A stretch of 19,219 bases of DNA from a virus. Where the stretch lies: the UHGV virus genome UHGV-0267650; one strand, written 5' to 3'. Below, piece after piece: positions 1,046 to 12,233 of this stretch (positions are counted from its first letter, which is position 1; the number at the start of each line of letters is the position of its first letter). The notes under the pieces are model-generated. The model saw nothing but the letters and a program-made list of their open reading frames with translations, made no database searches and was not told the origin of the DNA. A program made the translations under genes and the position numbers.

Positions 1046-2749
1046 TCAGGCAATAATGTTCTGGTACTTGCTCCGGGTTTCTCCGGCTTTCGTGGCGGTC
1101 TGCGTGAATGATGCCGCATTGGTCGGTGTGCCGACGCTGGGGTGTGAGTGACTGGCGCACTGCCTTGCCAGTTCTGCCAGTAAATCAATGGTATCCAGCA
1201 TCATGGTCAGGGCGTTGATACTCTCGCTGCCAATATGGACAGTTGCCCCCATGACCTGCTGACCGCCAGTGGCCACCGATTTACGTAATGCGGCAATCTT
1301 TTCTGTCAGGGTTCCCCCCACATCAACATCCACGGTGCCGGCTACTTTCGTGGATTGTTTGCCAGTTATATCGGCTTCGTCATTCCCCTCAATGCTGGCC
1401 AGCCTGTTACCTTTCACCGCCTGGCTATAATCACCGGCGCTTACCTGCTGGATGGCTCCGGCCAGCAGTGTGGCGGTTCCCAGTACCGTAGTTTTATCCG
1501 TGGCTTTCACCGTGGTTTCACGGCTGACCAGTTCGCGCTGTTCTGTATCGGCTTTTACAGTTCGCACCATTGATGTTTCGCTGATGGTCTGATCGGTCTG
1601 CCTTACCCAGTCCCCCGCCTGAGTCACTCTCTGGGATACTTCTTCCCGCTGCTGCTGTAATTGCTCACCGGGTTTAACGTCCGGCAGACTGGTGCCATCC
1701 GGTAGCGTCTGCCTGATAAAGGGTTTATCCGGTCTGCCTCCTGTGAATGCGACCTCAACCAGCGTCCCTTCTGGCGGGAACTGAAACATACCTGAATCAT
1801 TCCCGGCCATTGGTACCGGCAGCGGCACCGCTGAATAAACAGGCGTCTGATTGTCCGGGTTTCCGTCTGCGTCAAGCAGCTGAACGTCCACGGCGTAACG
1901 TGGACGGAAGGGATCGGCAAAGTTACCGCTTTTTACCGGCTCTGAATGCGCCACGACTCTGGCCATCTTTGGCAAATGAAGCCCGGATGCCAGTTCCGGG
2001 TAATGGCTTTCAATCTGCCGTTGCGCCGGTGTTTTCTGCAAAGGTTTACCCGTTGCGCGGTTTCTCGGCGTCCATGTGATCGCCATCGTGTCATTCGTCA
2101 GGTGAACTTTAGTCACGCGTTCACCGTTCATCTCCACCCCTGGCCGCATAGTCTGGATCACTGGTAATGTCACAGAGTTACCGCCAGCAGCCCCCTGGCT
2201 GAACTCTGACGGGATTTCTACGGGACGACCGGCAAATAATGACTTTTCTGCGCCGCCGACGTAAAGCGAACCATCAGGCAACTGGTACCAGATGTAATCC
2301 AGGATACTGAACGCCCTGCCCAGATTGTTCAGCAACTGATAACCTGTACCGTTATGGGTAAAATGTGGGATGGGGGTATCGCTGTACTGTGCATCAGGCA
2401 CACTGACCGTGATCCCGCTGTTTTCTTCCAGCCAGCCCGCAATTTCACGCAAAGTCGGGTGTTGAAACGAACATGGCCACATCCTTTCAAACACACCTAC
2501 CAGCTCACGAATGAACAGACGCTGAAAACCTTTTTCCGCGGGCTGCGATCGCTCCACATACCCCGTAAACCAGCGCAAAAGCAGATCGGTATACCCCACA
2601 TCCAGCCGCACCAGTTTTCCGGTGTAATCGGTTGTTGTCTCTGCGGTGATGAAGCCCCGGCCGCAGTTGTTCAGCTCCAGTACCAGGCTGGCGTCCGCCA
2701 TGTGAACTTCATCCGTTGAAAGGTAAAGGCGTTTTACTGGTTTCATCAT
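1046..2749 (-). CDS. Baseplate central spike protein: gpV-like OB-fold and apex in the C-terminal half, with a ~300-aa N-terminal extension of unknown identity (possibly hub-like)
   Basis: 567-aa ORF, last gene of the operon. Residues ~321-345 PPEGTLVEVAFTGGRPDKPFI resemble the OB-fold motif of P2 gpV as I recall it (PSVGEQVLILAVGGELDTAFV). Near the C-terminus ASHSHPSVGTPT resembles the gpV apex motif HTHKHPGDSGGTTGSP. Its start codon overlaps the stop of the upstream ORF. Confidence 0.6.
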   Translation of the reverse strand: MMKPVKRLYLSTDEVHMADASLVLELNNCGRGFITAETTTDYTGKLVRLDVGYTDLLLRWFTGYVERSQPAEKGFQRLFIRELVGVFERMWPCSFQHPTLREIAGWLEENSGITVSVPDAQYSDTPIPHFTHNGTGYQLLNNLGRAFSILDYIWYQLPDGSLYVGGAEKSLFAGRPVEIPSEFSQGAAGGNSVTLPVIQTMRPGVEMNGERVTKVHLTNDTMAITWTPRNRATGKPLQKTPAQRQIESHYPELASGLHLPKMARVVAHSEPVKSGNFADPFRPRYAVDVQLLDADGNPDNQTPVYSAVPLPVPMAGNDSGMFQFPPEGTLVEVAFTGGRPDKPFIRQTLPDGTSLPDVKPGEQLQQQREEVSQRVTQAGDWVRQTDQTISETSMVRTVKADTEQRELVSRETTVKATDKTTVLGTATLLAGAIQQVSAGDYSQAVKGNRLASIEGNDEADITGKQSTKVAGTVDVDVGGTLTEKIAALRKSVATGGQQVMGATVHIGSESINALTMMLDTIDLLAELARQCASHSHPSVGTPTNAASFTQTATKAGETRSKYQNIIA

Positions 2750-3294
2750 TAACCCAAAGCATCATTGACGGGCTTCAGCACCTTGCGTTCAAACCACGTC
2801 AGTTTTTCTTCATCCTCTCCGGCAGACTGGCCACCGGACTGTCCCGCACTACCGGCAGTTTGTTTTTTTGCGGTCGTCTTACCTGTTGCCCTGGCCTCTC
2901 GCTTTTCCTGCACGCTGATATGTTCCGCCAGTGTGAATGTCACCAGCCAGGACATTTTCCCGTCCTGCTGGGGTGCATCCAGCATCCCGCTGAACGTTGC
3001 TTCACGAAAATTAACAGCACGGGCAACTTCATGCGCCACGCGGTACTTCTGACGATTACCACTGGCATCGGTAGCACTGGCCAGCTCAAAAATACGCTTG
3101 AGTATTTCAGGCTGTTTAAAAGGTATTTCCCCGCTGATCCGCAGTTCCTTTCCCTTTGCTCCCTGCTCTGATTTTGTTGTGGCGCTGGTCTGGCCGGACT
3201 GATCTTTATCCTGAAACTGCTGTGAAACAGTCACCCGCATGTTTTTCAGCTGGATGGCCTCGCCATTAAGCGCCAGTGTCGGGATCGAAGTCAT
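2749..3294 (-). CDS. Hypothetical protein within the tail operon (181 aa), function unknown
   Basis: Long - strand ORF packed between neighbours; overlaps the upstream ORF by 29 nt and shares position 2749 with the start of the spike gene. Contains a low-complexity Q/S/T/G/K-rich segment. No family recognised. Confidence 0.45.
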   Translation of the reverse strand: MTSIPTLALNGEAIQLKNMRVTVSQQFQDKDQSGQTSATTKSEQGAKGKELRISGEIPFKQPEILKRIFELASATDASGNRQKYRVAHEVARAVNFREATFSGMLDAPQQDGKMSWLVTFTLAEHISVQEKREARATGKTTAKKQTAGSAGQSGGQSAGEDEEKLTWFERKVLKPVNDALG

Positions 3295-8243: not shown

Positions 8244-10207
8244 ACACCCAGCTCCTGATATTCCATTAACTTGCCGGGCGACATCATTTCAGTTGGATAA
8301 ATATTCACCGTATCAATTCTGCGGCTGTTATCCGTTACTGATTTAGAATTACTACTAATTGTTTTACTGATACCGCCTTTATCAACGCCTTTTAATTCAC
8401 CGCCAGTAGAAAGGGTATTCGTTGTCAGTGCTGGTTGAGATTCGTTCGCCAGTGAAATATCGACGCCCGGAATTTTATTGAGTTTTCCGACAATCCAGTT
8501 CCACGATTTCAGGAACCCGCCTTTGATGGTCTGCCAGACGTTATCAAACAGGGAGACAATCCCGCTGGCCATGCCGCTTAGCGCCTGTGACGGTGAAAAG
8601 CCGGTCAGCAGCGCAATAAAGCTGTTCCAGCCGTCCGTGATCCATTGCCACGCCGCGGAAAACACGCCGGCAAGCCATTCAACCACACCAGCCACGGCGG
8701 TAAACGCTGCCGTATTCATCACCGCCGCTTTCACATCATCCCAGTGTTTAATCAGCAGATAACACCCGGCAGCCAGCAGAGCAATCGCCCCGATAACCAG
8801 CAGAACCGGCCAGCTCATCAGGTTGATGCCAATACCGGCCATAATCGCCGCCATACGCACGGCCAGCAGCGTACCCCGCAGGAATTTCAGCGTCAGGTTC
8901 CACGCCACAACAGCCTTTGAGGCAATCCAGACCGTGGCCGTGTAAAACTTCGTGACCAGCGTCAGGGCGCTCCAGAGTCCCTTCAGTCCCACCAGGATAA
9001 ATTTTGAGACGCCCATGACAATATTTGTCACCGCGCCCGCTGCCGCCACGCCAAACAGCGCAAGTTGCACGTAACCAATCACCCGCGCAATGTTGGGAAA
9101 CATCTGCATCCAGCGTCCGAACGTCTGCCCCATATCGGCCAGGCGGTTCAGTACCGGGTACAGAACCGGGATCAACGTCAGTCCGATCACCGTCTGAATG
9201 GCTTTAAGGATTTGTACAAAGCGATCCCACGGCCTGACCAGCTTCCCGGCCATCTCCTGTGTACGCTTCAGCCCGTCAGAGCCGCCCAGTTCGGTGATAT
9301 TACGCTGCAGTAACGCCACATTGCCGTACAGATGTTTTATCACCGCTGAACTGTCACCAAATGCCGCATCCAGCTCCGCCTGGGCTTTCAGGTTCCCTTC
9401 CAGGCTTTTGCCGTATTTGCCCTGCAGCTTGATCAGCATTTCAGGCATGGACAGCATTTTGCCGGTGGAGTCCGTAAAGGACAGCCCAAGCTTTTTAGCG
9501 CCCTCTATCGCGCCGGTCATGAAACCTTCGTAAGCGCTGCTGGCCTCTGTTCCCAGCGTACGGTTGAGCTGTCCCAGCACCGCCAGCTGTTCATCCAGCC
9601 CGACGCCGTAGTTGGTACCGACCCCCCGCGCCCCTTCCATCAGGTCTTTAATGGTACCCATTTCGGTACCGAAGACCTTGCGCATATACACCATTTTTCC
9701 CGCCAGTTGCTCAGCGAACTGGACTTTACCCAGCCGCGCCGCATCGTCGGAAAAGTTACCGTACATCTGCCCCATGAACTCCGCCGTGTCGGCGGATGTG
9801 GATTTTAGGGCAAATGCCAGCGTATTAGCGACCTTCGTCACTCTCGGCAGCTCGCTGGCGGTAAGGCCGGCAATGGACGCGTTAATGTTCTCTGTGGATT
9901 TGACGAACTCCACCGCGCTGGCACCGTAGGTCATGCTGAACCGGAGCGCGTCACGCTGTACGGTCTTTAATGCCTGATTATCAATCCCTTTTGCGGCGGC
10001 ATCATTCAGCGCGTCGTACATTTCGATAGCCGGCGATAACGCGCCTTTTATGGCCATTCCCGTGCCAACCAGTCCCAGCACGCCGCCACCAATCTGCGAA
10101 AAGGCCGCTTTTGATTTTTCCGCAAAGCCGGTGACGCTGCCCTGCGCCTGTTTTAACGGGCGCGTCAGCTTATCAATCAGGCTTAATGTAAAATCTAACT
10201 GTTTCAT
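8240..10207 (-). CDS. Tail tape measure protein
   Basis: 655-aa ORF, the longest in the tail module. It is Ala/Gly/Leu-rich with helical N-terminal repeats and hydrophobic segments in the C-terminal half, and sits directly downstream of the chaperone/frameshift pair. Its ATG overlaps the stop of the frameshift extension. Confidence 0.8.
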   Translation of the reverse strand: MKQLDFTLSLIDKLTRPLKQAQGSVTGFAEKSKAAFSQIGGGVLGLVGTGMAIKGALSPAIEMYDALNDAAAKGIDNQALKTVQRDALRFSMTYGASAVEFVKSTENINASIAGLTASELPRVTKVANTLAFALKSTSADTAEFMGQMYGNFSDDAARLGKVQFAEQLAGKMVYMRKVFGTEMGTIKDLMEGARGVGTNYGVGLDEQLAVLGQLNRTLGTEASSAYEGFMTGAIEGAKKLGLSFTDSTGKMLSMPEMLIKLQGKYGKSLEGNLKAQAELDAAFGDSSAVIKHLYGNVALLQRNITELGGSDGLKRTQEMAGKLVRPWDRFVQILKAIQTVIGLTLIPVLYPVLNRLADMGQTFGRWMQMFPNIARVIGYVQLALFGVAAAGAVTNIVMGVSKFILVGLKGLWSALTLVTKFYTATVWIASKAVVAWNLTLKFLRGTLLAVRMAAIMAGIGINLMSWPVLLVIGAIALLAAGCYLLIKHWDDVKAAVMNTAAFTAVAGVVEWLAGVFSAAWQWITDGWNSFIALLTGFSPSQALSGMASGIVSLFDNVWQTIKGGFLKSWNWIVGKLNKIPGVDISLANESQPALTTNTLSTGGELKGVDKGGISKTISSNSKSVTDNSRRIDTVNIYPTEMMSPGKLMEYQELGV

Positions 10208-10652
10208 TCCGTGCCTTTAAATGCAGTGCTGATTCCGTTAGCAACCGCTATTCGCATATTTTCCCAGTGGCGATTATCCAGCCAGATAGCAGCGGAAATA
10301 TCATCCATGGAATCCTGACCGTGTGGTAAATAATGGCGACGCAAAATTAAATACTGTTCGAGTCCGTTCTGTTCAATTGCCCGGACTCGTTTTGTCAGTT
10401 TTTTACTTCAATTTCCAGTTCTGGCGCATAAAGTTCATTCACTTTCCCGGCCAACTGGATCGCTGCGCCCGGACGTTTCAGAATATCATCCAGCGCCTCT
10501 TTACTTTCAGCAGACACAATGCGCACAAGATAATTGTGTGCAGGTGCCACTTTATTATCCATCGCCATTTCGTTGATGAACTTATTATAAGCGGTCTGAT
10601 TCGGTTCAAAGGTGATTTCTTTTTCGCATACAACCAGATTAATTTTTTCCAT
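10204..10652 (-). CDS. Predicted -1 frameshift fusion product of the tail assembly chaperone (E+E'-like, ~146 aa)
   Basis: The -1 frame is open for 61 codons from the slippery site at 10398..10404 (LTKRVRAIEQNGLEQYLILRRHYLPHGQDSMDDISAAIWLDNRHWENMRIAVANGISTAFKGTE). It ends at a TGA that overlaps the tape measure ATG. The 0 frame and +1 frame both hit stops immediately. Confidence 0.55.
10395..10652 (-). CDS. Tail assembly chaperone (P2 gpE-like), zero-frame product
   Basis: 85-aa ORF immediately upstream of the tape measure gene. It ends ...EVKN with the canonical slippery heptamer A_AAA_AAC placed just before its TGA stop. Confidence 0.6.
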   Translation of the reverse strand: MEKINLVVCEKEITFEPNQTAYNKFINEMAMDNKVAPAHNYLVRIVSAESKEALDDILKRPGAAIQLAGKVNELYAPELEIEVKN

Positions 10653-10938
10653 AAATAACGTTCTCTCTTAAATTAATTTCATCAACAAGCGCGTTATGCC
10701 GTGCAGCACACTGCCCGTATAACTCCAGATAAAGTGTCAGTAATTCCGCCGCGTCTTTTCCCTGCGTTCCACTCAGGCGCGGCAGCTGCGTGGCGCATTT
10801 AGTTTTCAGGTTTTCCTGATAACGTACGTTCGGTACTGGTGACGGCGTCGTTGTACATGCGGACAAAGTCATCAGACAGACACTTATTGGTAAATACCGG
10901 CTTAACCACTTCCGTGCGGATTTCACGCGGTGGCGCAT
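10639..10938 (-). CDS. o-spanin (outer-membrane lipoprotein, Rz1/LysC-like)
   Basis: 99-aa ORF that starts inside the i-spanin gene in another frame and extends beyond it. It has a signal peptide with lipobox LSAC followed by a Pro-rich segment (TTTPSPVPNV), typical of o-spanins. Confidence 0.6.
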   Translation of the reverse strand: MRHRVKSARKWLSRYLPISVCLMTLSACTTTPSPVPNVRYQENLKTKCATQLPRLSGTQGKDAAELLTLYLELYGQCAARHNALVDEINLRENVIYGKN

Positions 10939-11131
10939 TTTTCAGTGCCTCCAGTTTGTCTTCCAGCCGGCGACCAGATGAACCGGCAATTTCAGCCAGT
11001 TGTTCCCCGGTCGCGGTGACCGCTTTTGAGACAGTCAGATCAACACTGTCCCGCTGCCAGCCGGCCGTTTTCCAGCCGGCTATAAATGCCAGAGCAAGGG
11101 TGAATAACCAGCCTGACACGACGCGATCCAT
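10799..11131 (-). CDS. i-spanin (inner-membrane, Rz/LysB-like)
   Basis: 110-aa ORF with an N-terminal transmembrane segment (VVSGWLFTLALAFIAGW) followed by a charged helical periplasmic region. Lies directly downstream of the endolysin with a 1-nt overlap. Confidence 0.6.
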   Translation of the reverse strand: MDRVVSGWLFTLALAFIAGWKTAGWQRDSVDLTVSKAVTATGEQLAEIAGSSGRRLEDKLEALKNAPPREIRTEVVKPVFTNKCLSDDFVRMYNDAVTSTERTLSGKPEN

Positions 11132-11472
11132 CAGCGCACCCCGTTATGTTCCAGGCTGAAATGATTACCATCAGGGCGGGATTTGAAGCGACCGCCCCAT
11201 GAACCACCCAGCGATTCCCAGTATTCACCCAGCGGCAGATACGCCGCGCTGTCGGTCTGATACTGGCCATTAATGAACAGATTGAAGTCCACGGCCAGAC
11301 GCTGCGTGTGCAGACTGCTGGAAATGCCGCTGCCTTTTTTCGCGTTCAGTGCAGCCTGTTCCGGGGTACGGTAAGCCTCACCAAACGTCAGCCGGTAGCC
11401 ATGTTCTTCAGCCCACTGGATCAGATTTGCCACCATAACGGTAAAGAGTTGCTGTTTTTCGCTCAGAGTCAT
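11131..11472 (-). CDS. Endolysin, peptidase M15-type (L-alanyl-D-glutamate peptidase-like)
   Basis: 113-aa ORF containing SLHTQRLAVDF and DGNHFSLEH, consistent with the H-x(6)-D...H zinc-binding signature of M15 phage endolysins. Flanked by a holin and spanins. Confidence 0.7.
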   Translation of the reverse strand: MTLSEKQQLFTVMVANLIQWAEEHGYRLTFGEAYRTPEQAALNAKKGSGISSSLHTQRLAVDFNLFINGQYQTDSAAYLPLGEYWESLGGSWGGRFKSRPDGNHFSLEHNGVR

Positions 11473-11765
11473 TTCCCTGTCCCTTTATCAAAAATCCCTG
11501 TAAAACCCCGCTTACGCAGCCAGGCTTCCACCACATTCTGTCCCAGAATACCCAACGCGGAGCCAAATCCGGCTAATGCGAGCGGGTGGATATCCGGGAC
11601 AAAGTACAGCGCCACCCCGGCAATCAGTGACAGTCCGCTGCCCACAATGACACGCCCCGCCACCAGGCGAAGGGTGATTGGTTCATCACTGTTGAGCAAT
11701 TTACCCAGCGCAATCAGCGCCCCCATGACTGCCAGTGCAATGAACCCCTTTTCGTACTCCTGCAT
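11469..11765 (-). CDS. Holin (three predicted transmembrane segments)
   Basis: 98-aa ORF with three hydrophobic stretches and a charged C-terminus (RKRGFTGIFDKGTGK). Sits immediately upstream of the endolysin with a 4-nt overlap. Confidence 0.6.
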   Translation of the reverse strand: MQEYEKGFIALAVMGALIALGKLLNSDEPITLRLVAGRVIVGSGLSLIAGVALYFVPDIHPLALAGFGSALGILGQNVVEAWLRKRGFTGIFDKGTGK

Positions 11766-11777
11766 CCCTGCTGCCTC

Positions 11778-12233
11778 TTATCCAATCAGGTTTTCCGTGG
11801 CTTCCGCTTCCAGATACGGCACACCGTTGATGTTGACGAACTTCGGACTTGTCACGAAGTATTTGATTTTATGCGTGGACACACTGCCACCCTTCGGATC
11901 ACCATCCAGAACGCTGTTGAGCTGCAGCTTGTTACCAAAGGTTTCCACCTTCATTTCCTCGCTGCCGGCTTTGGCGTAAAAAAGGAAGTCAACCGGAGGA
12001 ATGCCACGCCATGACCCCGCTGAACGGGCTTTGGCTGTCAGAACCTGCAGCACTTTTGAGCTGACTTCAATTTCACCCTCAGCGGCAACATCTCCGTCCA
12101 CATACCCGTCAGGGACACCGCGCGTCTGTGCCGCCGCGCTGTTATCGGTGATATCCAGCGAAATTTTTTCAATGTGGATCAGGTCACCGTCCAGATAGAT
12201 GTCAAAGGACATCCCTGAAATACGTTTGGTCAT
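11778..12233 (-). CDS. Contractile tail tube protein (P2 gpFII-like in size and position)
   Basis: 151-aa ORF directly after the sheath-sized gene, joined to it by an ATGA overlap. Size is typical of tube proteins. Confidence 0.5.
   Translation of the reverse strand: MTKRISGMSFDIYLDGDLIHIEKISLDITDNSAAAQTRGVPDGYVDGDVAAEGEIEVSSKVLQVLTAKARSAGSWRGIPPVDFLFYAKAGSEEMKVETFGNKLQLNSVLDGDPKGGSVSTHKIKYFVTSPKFVNINGVPYLEAEATENLIG

Follow-up and report, generated by a model that had tools for sequence, protein, structure and literature searches.

A very strongly conserved −1 frameshift signal predicted to join a Phage_TAC_10 tail assembly chaperone to DUF6890 in an HP1-type phage

The closest known systems to the locus described here belong to the HP1 subgroup of the Peduoviridae (HP1, HP2, F108, K139, phiO18P, ESSI-2 and ev239). 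In HP1, orf26 and a −1 ORF located before orf27 correspond to a tail assembly chaperone and its extension. The fusions of HP1 and phi3 likewise combine the Pfam families Phage_TAC_10 and DUF6890 in the same two frames, and in HP1, F108 and K139 the chaperone frame ends in GTA AAA AAC followed by a stop, as it does here. A frameshift is annotated in none of the HP1-subgroup phage records, while the GenBank record of the more distant Pseudoalteromonas phage ACA1, which belongs to the same Pfam family, carries such an annotation by projection only. In the literature, we found no experimental evidence for a frameshift in any member of the Phage_TAC_10 family, and searches for DUF6890, for ESSI-2 with frameshift and for HP1 with chaperone and frameshift yielded nothing relevant. 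In P2, Christie et al., whose work the P2 and ACA1 records cite, are said to have described in 2002 a −1 frameshift in the FETUD tail operon that gives E and E+E', and Xu et al. reportedly covered P2-like myoviruses in 2004. In lambda, an abundant short chaperone (G) and a rare −1 long form (GT) are made just upstream of the tape measure gene, the slippery site being G_GGA_AAG. The ~30:1 ratio of the two lambda forms and the binding of the T domain to the tube protein were shown experimentally, whereas for the present locus both would apply by analogy. The lambda work (Levin 1993; Xu, Hendrix and Duda 2004, 2013, 2014) has been summarised, and frameshifting of the G/GT type is widespread and conserved among long-tailed phages (PMC5009743). 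As for the heptamer A_AAA_AAC, it is weak in E. coli, being one of the less efficient slippery sequences (PMC5009743, PMC4066793), and the IS1 insA-insB' junction is a proven case of low-efficiency −1 frameshifting on it (PMC4066793). IS1 shares with our locus the identical heptamer and an enterobacterial host, but its product is a transposase and it has no established stimulator, whereas a covarying hairpin and an adjacent stop accompany the heptamer here.

The window, that is, the whole stretch of 19,219 nucleotides of virus genome UHGV-0267650 that we analyzed, contains a locus at which a programmed −1 slip very probably yields an 85-aa and a 149-aa form of the tail assembly chaperone. All elements of the locus are on the minus strand:

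12233..11778, minus strand: tube gene, upstream of the chaperone gene
10652..10395, minus strand: tail assembly chaperone gene, frame-0 product of 85 aa, Pfam Phage_TAC_10, counterpart of lambda G, P2 E and HP1 orf26
10410..10408, minus strand: −1 frame stop TGA, upstream edge of the 10-nt shift window
10404..10398, minus strand: slippery heptamer A_AAA_AAC in the phase X_XXY_YYZ, GT[A AAA AAC]
10397..10395, minus strand: frame-0 stop TGA, abutting the heptamer, downstream edge of the shift window
10359..10389, minus strand: candidate stimulatory hairpin of 8 bp with a 15-nt loop and an 8-nt spacer (10397..10390)
10204..10398, minus strand: −1 frame extension of 64 codons plus TGA, DUF6890 domain, counterpart of lambda T and P2 E'
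complement(join(10398..10652, 10204..10398)), minus strand: predicted fused CDS of 149 aa
8240..10207, minus strand: tape measure protein gene, 655 aa, Pfam PhageMin_Tail (E=1.8e-21) and phrog_28 'tail length tape measure protein'

The chaperone gene and the −1 ORF (10407..10204, 67 codons from stop to stop) sit directly 5' of the tape measure gene, whose identity, anticipated in the original prediction, is borne out by the two matches listed. The gene order of sheath, tube, lysis cassette, chaperone, tape measure and baseplate is the same in HP1, and the four-gene lysis cassette separates the tube gene from the chaperone gene as in the HP1 subgroup. Among sequenced phages, Escherichia phage ESSI2_ev239 (Evevirus) comes closest, with 97.7% DNA identity over the region, whereas HP1 differs in that its chaperone has a 17-aa N-terminal extension and in that its downstream hairpin is different. 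With two ORFs before the tape measure gene and an in-phase slip site in their overlap, the locus is, as far as its sequence can tell, of the G/GT-type class. It differs from lambda in that lambda is a siphovirus without detectable sequence similarity to this locus. The likeness to P2 is closer in layout, because both are contractile-tail Peduoviridae phages with a small chaperone gene directly upstream of the tape measure gene, and in both the stop of the long product overlaps the tape measure start. However, P2 has its chaperone gene right behind the tube gene FII, with no lysis cassette between the two, its domains are Phage_TAC_7 and Phage_P2_GpE rather than Phage_TAC_10 and DUF6890, and the slip site T_TTT_TTG lies six codons before the E stop, whereas A_AAA_AAC abuts the stop here. 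The proteins of the window gave no Pfam match to PF10109 or PF06528, and hhalign of a 17-member profile against P2 E+E' returned a probability of 0.13%. According to these data, the locus would work like P2 E/E+E' but stands outside that sequence family. The original prediction had compared the locus with P2 E/E'; this stands as an analogy but not as sequence homology (different Pfam families; hhalign probability, rounded, 0.1%), while its remark that the slip site is unlike the T-rich one of P2 was correct. It had also placed the product sizes near those of P2 E and E+E', and they are 91/142 aa in P2 vs 85/149 aa here, although its own count for the fusion was off.

The 85-aa ORF matches Pfam Phage_TAC_10 (PF10963) with E=9e-36 and 122.4 bits against a gathering cut-off of 25.7. 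Its predicted structure matches the fold of the HK97 tail assembly chaperone (HK97 gp-G-like, PDB 2ob9), showing the ~85–100 aa domain of a beta-hairpin followed by a helical bundle that is seen in solved tail assembly chaperones. Pfam family and predicted fold thus agree with the earlier assignment of the upstream ORF as a tail assembly chaperone. The extension matches Pfam DUF6890 (PF21830) with E=2.8e-25 and 88.2 bits against a gathering cut-off of 23.6, and phrog_7050. Modeled alone from its single sequence, it gives two helices at low confidence (pLDDT 62.6). By these family matches the locus belongs to the Phage_TAC_10 and DUF6890 families, in the lineage of HP1 orf26.

As had been predicted, the chaperone ORF, located at 10652..10395 on the minus strand, ends in ...GAA GTA AAA AAC TGA, and the in-frame A_AAA_AAC lies at 10404..10398, with zero nucleotides between heptamer and stop. 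The −1 frame opens only at 10407, 3 nt ahead of the heptamer, which leaves no more than 10 nt (10407..10398) that are free of stops in frame 0 and in frame −1 alike. Because of this short overlap and the −1 frame TGA at 10410..10408, a productive shift is possible only on the heptamer. The −1 frame then runs from CTG 10398..10396 to GAA 10209..10207, which amounts to 64 sense codons and not the exactly 61 counted earlier, and to a fusion of 149 aa instead of ~146. Its TGA (10206..10204) does overlap the tape measure ATG (10207..10205), giving the sequence ATGA. Regarding the other frames, which had been said to stop at once, this holds for the 0 frame but not for the +1 frame, which runs 9 codons; as it then closes, we rejected +1 or −2 shifting. 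The heptamer motif by itself is not unusual, its significance lying in position and conservation: AAAAAAC occurs 7 times in the window vs 4.5 +/- 2.2 expected, and in-frame X_XXY_YYZ motifs are found at 23/5485 (~0.4%) of the codons of minus-strand ORFs.

We collected 132 related loci with N-terminal patterns only, and 126 of them contain NTAAAAAAC followed by a stop. In four of the others, all of them intact, these codons read A_AAA_AAG, A_AAA_AAA or A_AAG. A further 143 related loci all conform to the slip-site arrangement. Across ~280 loci in total, drawn from enterobacterial, Aeromonas, Haemophilus, Vibrio and Pseudomonas phages, a slip site made of lysine codons is retained at the homologous position, as the original prediction would have it, and the −1 frame is open there in every intact relative examined; a closed frame would have spoken against the prediction. 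The slip site is A_AAA_AAC in the clade of this locus and in HP1, F108 and K139, and A_AAA_AAA, A_AAA_AAG or A_AAG elsewhere, with A_AAA_AAA in PV94 and PY3 and A_AAA_AAG in phi3 and PfPro. In the 102 unique sequences of the AAC clade, entropy is zero at all 7 heptamer positions, three 0-frame synonymous sites included: AAA is never AAG, and AAC is never AAT, though replacing C by T at position 7 would alter the encoded residue in neither frame. In the codon preceding the slip, position 1 is variable (GTA, CTA, ATA), while the silent position 3 is fixed. Every AAC member, and nearly every AAA member, has a stop (TGA, TAA or TAG) abutting the heptamer. The geometry is conserved as well, the overlap of frames 0 and −1 being exactly 10 nt in 95/130 loci and the ATGA overlap of extension stop and tape measure start being present in 102/130. 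Judged by this pattern, the locus is a very strongly conserved programmed −1 ribosomal frameshift signal.

Coding selection gives a consistent picture. Codon-position entropy is 0.54/0.29/1.33 in frame 0 upstream of the heptamer and 0.50/0.37/1.29 in frame −1 downstream of it, the first 18 codons included, and the −1 periodicity starts at the first codon after the heptamer. The signature of protein-level selection thus lies in frame 0 right up to the heptamer and in frame −1 from that very point on. In addition, the fused products of 17 diverse members align without gaps across the junction.

Downstream of the heptamer, the candidate hairpin is formed by the arms CGAGUCCG (10389..10382) and CGGACUCG (10366..10359). 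The hairpin alone has a dG of −14.2 kcal/mol, and the 75-nt fold reaches −17 kcal/mol (z=−2.4). Across 80 unique sequences, pairing is kept in 89.4% of cells, compared to 10–42% for slid controls, and 5/8 pairs change on both sides. The covariation score is 0.325 vs 0.187, with 0/500 shuffles reaching 0.325, and RNAalifold independently predicts the identical helix. Because the arms also encode conserved residues (RVR, NGLE), part of this conservation is protein-level. Aeromonas, Yersinia and Brenneria-type relatives do not keep the stem intact, and fold z-scores are mixed in distant relatives, whose hairpins differ. A covarying structure 5–9 nt from the heptamer, of the kind that characterizes dnaX/IS911-type signals, is accordingly a feature of the enterobacterial clade only, where the 8-bp hairpin located 8 nt downstream probably assists the slip. 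An Rfam search returned only a chance sub-threshold match to a snoRNA. As to an upstream Shine-Dalgarno-like stimulator, the region 6–17 nt before the heptamer holds only a weak UGGA (dG of the anti-SD duplex −3.3 kcal/mol). Such elements are optional in known cases of bacterial −1 programmed ribosomal frameshifting.

The extension could also be read as a separate gene, encoding a DUF6890 protein of 34–46 aa that starts at TTG 10344 or ATG 10308 without recoding. RefSeq/PGAP and several phage records present it in this manner, giving a 46-aa 'DUF6890 family protein' or 'hypothetical protein', with TTG 10344 as the RefSeq start. Moreover, the internal ATG noted earlier at about 10306 is present at 10308..10306, and in this window it is preceded, 4 nt upstream, by a weak AGGA (dG −4.1). 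However, neither start is conserved. The ATG is GTG, GTT, ATT, ATA or CTC in relatives, and TTG 10344, for which no Shine-Dalgarno sequence was found, is replaced by CTG, CTT or CTA in many of them. The entire extension is devoid of ATG in 41/110 unique sequences, and in 48/110 the first possible start comes at codon 48 or later. In contrast, the first 18–30 codons of the extension, which lie before the candidate starts and include the N-terminal residues LTKRVRAIEQNGLEQYLI that precede any start codon, are its best conserved part and show clean −1 periodicity. Separate genes would also give no reason for the −1 frame to open precisely where an invariant heptamer lies. We therefore regard independent initiation as very improbable; by all these signs the extension would be produced only as a fusion, having no conserved start codon of its own, as is typical of the G/GT class.

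A shift at the level of the transcript would lead to the same downstream frame. If RNA polymerase added one A in the A6 run, a minority of mRNAs would encode a fusion with the junction ...EVKK-LTK..., and some bacterial IS elements and secretion-system genes do use transcriptional slippage (PMC5009743). The homopolymer makes such an event conceivable, and the run is A7 in some relatives (PV94, PY3, L050, ACA1). Yet efficient slippage by bacterial RNA polymerase as a rule needs runs of ~8–9 or more, a length the A6 run falls short of, and within the 102 unique sequences of the AAC clade the run is never longer. Two related loci (L025 and L049) keep the same arrangement with only GTA AAG, without any homopolymer. 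Furthermore, the invariance of the C after the run, for all that its change to T is silent in both frames, is expected from the rules of tRNA re-pairing and not from polymerase slippage, and the covarying hairpin 8 nt downstream is of a kind typical of ribosomal stimulators. Taken together, these observations make polymerase slippage highly unlikely. Even less credible, to the point of being negligible, is that a chaperone gene, once continuous and coding for ~149 aa, lost its frame through mutation or through a sequencing error in the A-run, the heptamer being incidental. Homopolymer runs are indeed hot spots for indels and sequencing errors, and one relative (L051) has an indel elsewhere in the chaperone gene. 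But the same 'break' recurs across ~280 loci, which come from separate assemblies, isolates and phage genera, and purifying selection acts on both halves; an uninterrupted in-frame fusion was not found among the best 120 database clusters, each of which covers <=57% of the query.

For the ribosomal −1 frameshift, we propose the following course of events. Most ribosomes would terminate at the TGA 10397..10395 and release the 85-aa chaperone, whereas a minority would slip back by one nucleotide on A_AAA_AAC, either by tandem slippage of tRNA-Lys and tRNA-Asn or with tRNA-Asn in the P site and the stop codon in the A site. After the slip, CUG would be the first codon read, and translation would go on over 64 codons, up to the TGA overlapping the tape measure start. 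The resulting 149-aa fusion is predicted to read ...EIEVKN-LTKRVRAIEQNGLEQ..., its C-terminal part being the DUF6890 domain, and ribosomal slippage after decoding of Asn predicts a junction peptide containing IEVKNLTKRVRAIE. We infer the slippage itself from these features and expect an efficiency of a few per cent. The frame-0 stop abutting the heptamer may cause the ribosome to pause, and slow termination there could aid the slip. If the model of lambda G/GT and P2 E/E+E' carries over, the tape measure protein should be bound by both forms via their common chaperone domain. On the same analogy, the added domain of the rarer long form may serve to recruit the tube protein, and virions should contain neither product.

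The position of the frame-0 stop varies with the strength of the heptamer. It abuts the weak heptamers A_AAA_AAC and A_AAA_AAA in 126 enterobacterial loci, in 55/55 HP1-like loci and in 10/10 PV94-like loci, and it lies 7–11 codons downstream in the lineages with the strong A_AAA_AAG (78/78 phi3-like loci, plus L048). A tentative reading, which we put forward with considerable doubt, is that the stop forms an integral, co-evolving part of the frameshift signal in Phage_TAC_10 plus DUF6890 loci. If so, a termination pause and the hairpin would compensate for a poor slip site and hold the ratio of short to long form constant across hosts, and the phages would offer a natural titration series for the trade-off between heptamer strength, stop context and structure.

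Our understanding of tail assembly is unchanged by this locus, as the strategy is a textbook one; it is the current annotations of this phage group that miss the signal. In terms of mechanism, the family provides an unusually clean and deeply conserved bacterial A_AAA_AAC site, with sister clades using AAA or AAG, and with its stop-bounded 10-nt window and covarying hairpin it is a useful system in which to examine the tuning of frameshift efficiency. In terms of annotation, RefSeq/PGAP and most phage records split the locus or omit the second ORF, and the TTG start is implausible; the correct product would be the joined 149-aa CDS, a change that touches dozens of Peduoviridae genera and hundreds of prophages. 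DUF6890 would then be a frameshift-encoded C-terminal domain and, by analogy, a family that gains a function, to be recast as the 'T-like' domain by which HP1-type myoviruses would recruit the tube protein.

The proposed frameshift locus of UHGV-0267650 lies in a region whose genes are all on the minus strand, and comprises the following features.

Features of the proposed frameshift locus
10652..10395, minus: chaperone ORF, 85 aa, 3' end ...GAA ATT GAA GTA AAA AAC TGA
10410..10408, minus: TGA of the -1 frame, upstream of the heptamer
10404..10398, minus: heptamer AAAAAAC in the phase X_XXY_YYZ
10389..10359: 8-bp hairpin (arms CGAGUCCG / CGGACUCG, 15-nt loop), 8 nt 3' of the heptamer
ATG at 10207..10205, minus: tape measure ORF, 655 aa (PhageMin_Tail; PHROG 'tail length tape measure protein')

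The 85-aa protein matches the tail assembly chaperone family Phage_TAC_10 (Pfam, E=8.7e-36), and its stop codon abuts the heptamer with zero nucleotides between. The -1 frame opens at 10407 and runs for 67 stop-free codons to a TGA at 10206..10204, which overlaps the tape measure ATG as ATGA; this frame matches DUF6890 (Pfam, E=2.8e-25) and phrog_7050. Frames 0 and -1 share an open stretch of only 10 nt, essentially the heptamer, on which a -1 slip yields a fusion of 149 aa (85 aa + 64 aa). The ORF end, heptamer phase and ATGA overlap were as originally described, with the post-slip extension being 64 rather than 61 codons and the fusion 149 rather than about 146 aa. The +1 frame, said to stop at once, closes after 9 codons.

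By itself, the heptamer is unremarkable: AAAAAAC occurs seven times in the window against 4.5 expected, and in-frame X_XXY_YYZ motifs make up about 0.4% of codons in long minus-strand ORFs. The evidence lies in its position and its conservation. A second in-frame heptamer, T_TTG_GGT (2752..2758, minus), abuts the TAA stop of an HP1_ORF34-like baseplate gene at the junction of ORFs 3294..2749 and 2749..1046, and the following spike gene (Gp5_C / Phage_base_V) lies in the -1 frame, open from just upstream. Given the motif frequency and 21 ORF ends, the two genes probably just overlap in the usual TAATG manner, the motif there being a coincidence.

Related loci were retrieved from public genomes and IMG/VR using chaperone residues 1-75 only, with patterns in the N-terminal half, so that the heptamer was not selected for. 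NTA AAA AAC with an immediate stop was present in 126 of 132 loci. Two of the six exceptions are damaged or truncated (L051, L070), and the four intact ones carry A_AAA_AAG (L048), A_AAA_AAA (L050) or GT_A_AAG (L025, L049) at the homologous codons. In L051 (Enterobacter sp. EA-1, CP025776, 1201..1460), an upstream indel cuts the chaperone to 58 aa while heptamer and extension are intact, which suggests that the prophage is decaying or that the assembly is wrong at this point. With the fused product as tblastn query, 65 phage records, among them HP1, HP2, F108, PV94 and phi3, gave matches to both halves in two frames. HP1, F108 and K139 have A_AAA_AAC and stop, PV94 and PY3 have A_AAA_AAA and stop, and in phi3 and PfPro the site is A_AAA_AAG, the stop following 7 codons later. 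All of a further 143 loci conform, namely 78/78 intact phi3-like (80 retrieved, two of which ran off contigs), 10/10 PV94-like and 55/55 HP1-like. Within the AAC clade (102 unique junction sequences), entropy is zero at all seven heptamer positions, compared to a mean of 1.3 bits at other third codon positions. AAC to AAT was never seen in this set, though silent in both frames, and the pre-slip codon varies at its first position (GTA, CTA, ATA) while its silent third position is fixed.

The slip-site variant tracks clade and host, as seen for phi3-like loci (L135, L139, L141-L220) vs the window, L132 and L221-L285. In Enterobacterales, Aeromonas, Pasteurellaceae and K139 the site is A_AAA_AAC with the stop adjoining it, in PV94 and PY3 it is A_AAA_AAA, again with an adjoining stop, and in the phi3-like (Pseudomonas phage) clade and a Granulosicoccaceae MAG it is A_AAA_AAG with a stop 7-11 codons downstream; Pseudoalteromonas phage ACA1 is the exception, having A_AAA_AAA with a stop 7 codons later. 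That weak heptamers may go together with a directly adjoining stop at the level of clades is a lead, not a finding.

The extension has the hallmarks of coding sequence from its very beginning. Upstream of the heptamer, frame 0 gives codon-position entropies of 0.54/0.29/1.33; downstream, frame -1 gives 0.50/0.37/1.29, already so in the first 18 codons, and the N-terminus is the best conserved part of the consensus (LTKRVRAIERNGLEQYLILRRHYLP...). These periodicity data, together with the start codons, contradict independent initiation of a small DUF6890 protein: among 110 unique sequences no start codon is conserved, 41 lack any ATG, and 48 have their first ATG, GTG or TTG no earlier than codon 48 of about 64. 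The ATG at 10308 is not conserved among relatives, and no Shine-Dalgarno sequence was found at the TTG start used by RefSeq. Conceptual fusions of 17 diverse members align gap-free across the junction with an invariant slip-site lysine. No in-frame natural or annotated fusion was present in the 120 best clusters of a 5.8-billion-protein database, each covering at most 57% of the fused query. As judged from these comparisons, the extension would be translated solely as a fusion. A broken gene is opposed by purifying selection and by the repetition of the arrangement in about 280 loci.

Transcriptional slippage on the A6 run could likewise join the two frames; against it, the run is short, the A_AAG variants lack a homopolymer, the C after the run is invariant and a hairpin is present. 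The hairpin has a free energy of -14.2 kcal/mol and is paired in 89.4% of cells across 80 unique sequences, vs 10-42% in controls with the partner shifted by 1-3 columns. Double-sided changes affect five of its eight pairs (e.g. G-C to A-U in 27 sequences, C-G to G-C in 9), RNAalifold recovers the same helix, and the covariation score exceeds 500/500 shuffles, with the caveat that the arms double as code for conserved residues. In the Aeromonas, Yersinia and Brenneria-type relatives this helix is disrupted, and more distant members have other hairpins at +1 to +10 with mixed z-scores. Searches revealed no convincing upstream Shine-Dalgarno-like element and no Rfam family. The best explanation of the locus, and a very probable one, is -1 programmed ribosomal frameshifting, yielding abundant 85-aa chaperone and rarer 149-aa fusion. 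The original prediction of a frameshift holds, the slip site being kept across loci, the -1 frame coding and no start conserved; the feature is real and very well supported.

The proposed frameshift is analogous to lambda G/GT and P2 E/E+E', where much depends critically on how much of each form is made, the common domain binding the tape measure protein and the extension recruiting the tube protein (PMC5009743). A_AAA_AAC is weak in E. coli yet used in proven cases such as IS1 (PMC4066793); a low fixed ratio is what a weak site aided by a hairpin, and perhaps by pausing at termination, would suit. The P2 record (E 91 aa, E+E' 142 aa) has T_TTT_TTG six codons 5' of the E stop. The proposed likeness to P2 stands for the mode of working but not for the sequence families. 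Because the P2 proteins are Phage_TAC_7 and Phage_P2_GpE, with undetectable profile similarity, the locus would work like P2 E/E+E' yet be of the HP1 orf26 lineage. The lack of similarity agrees with PMC10612066, in which the tail modules of P2 and HP1 are deeply divided.

Outside this locus, the window consists of the late region of a Peduoviridae member of the HP1 type. Its order is scaffold, P2-family capsid, small terminase, head completion, tail completion R and S, sheath (DUF2586), tube (HP1 Orf24 family), holin, M15 endolysin, Rz and Rz1, chaperone and tape measure, followed by baseplate J and I, tail fibre, fibre assembly, HP1 ORF34 and spike. The lysis cassette between the tube and chaperone genes (10639..11765, minus) is complete and HP1-style, not P2-style; its o-spanin ORF shares 14 nt with the start of the chaperone gene.

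Genes of the lysis cassette
11765..11469, minus: holin
11472..11131, minus: M15 endolysin
11131..10799, minus: Rz-like i-spanin
10938..10639, minus: LysC/Rz1-like lipoprotein o-spanin (lipobox LSAC)

Among sequenced phages, Escherichia phage ESSI2_ev239 is nearest (97.7% identity across the region), closely similar prophages are present in 39 of 5426 complete E. coli genomes, and an identical chaperone protein is on record for Citrobacter amalonaticus.

Frameshifted tail chaperones are a textbook class, to which this locus adds another member. Within the HP1 orf26 lineage, the GenBank record of ACA1 (PF10963 chaperone) already annotates a 'projected programmed frameshift analogous to that in phage P2'. 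The other inspected records, those of ev239, ev040, ESSI-2, YenM_324, phiO18P, SI7, HP1, K139, phi3, F108, PV94, PY3, PfPro and an E. coli RefSeq prophage, have either a small ORF of its own or no annotation for the extension. In Vibrio phage K139 (L134, NC_003313, 132..710), orf30 is annotated as 192 aa, with an N-terminal lipoprotein signal (LLLSGC, o-spanin-like) in frame into the chaperone domain; either its start was wrongly called, or spanin and chaperone use one reading frame in common. The main value of the finding lies in annotation, with the two frames entered as a joined CDS and DUF6890 as a frameshift-encoded domain, and the locus family provides a clean natural series of slip-site variants.
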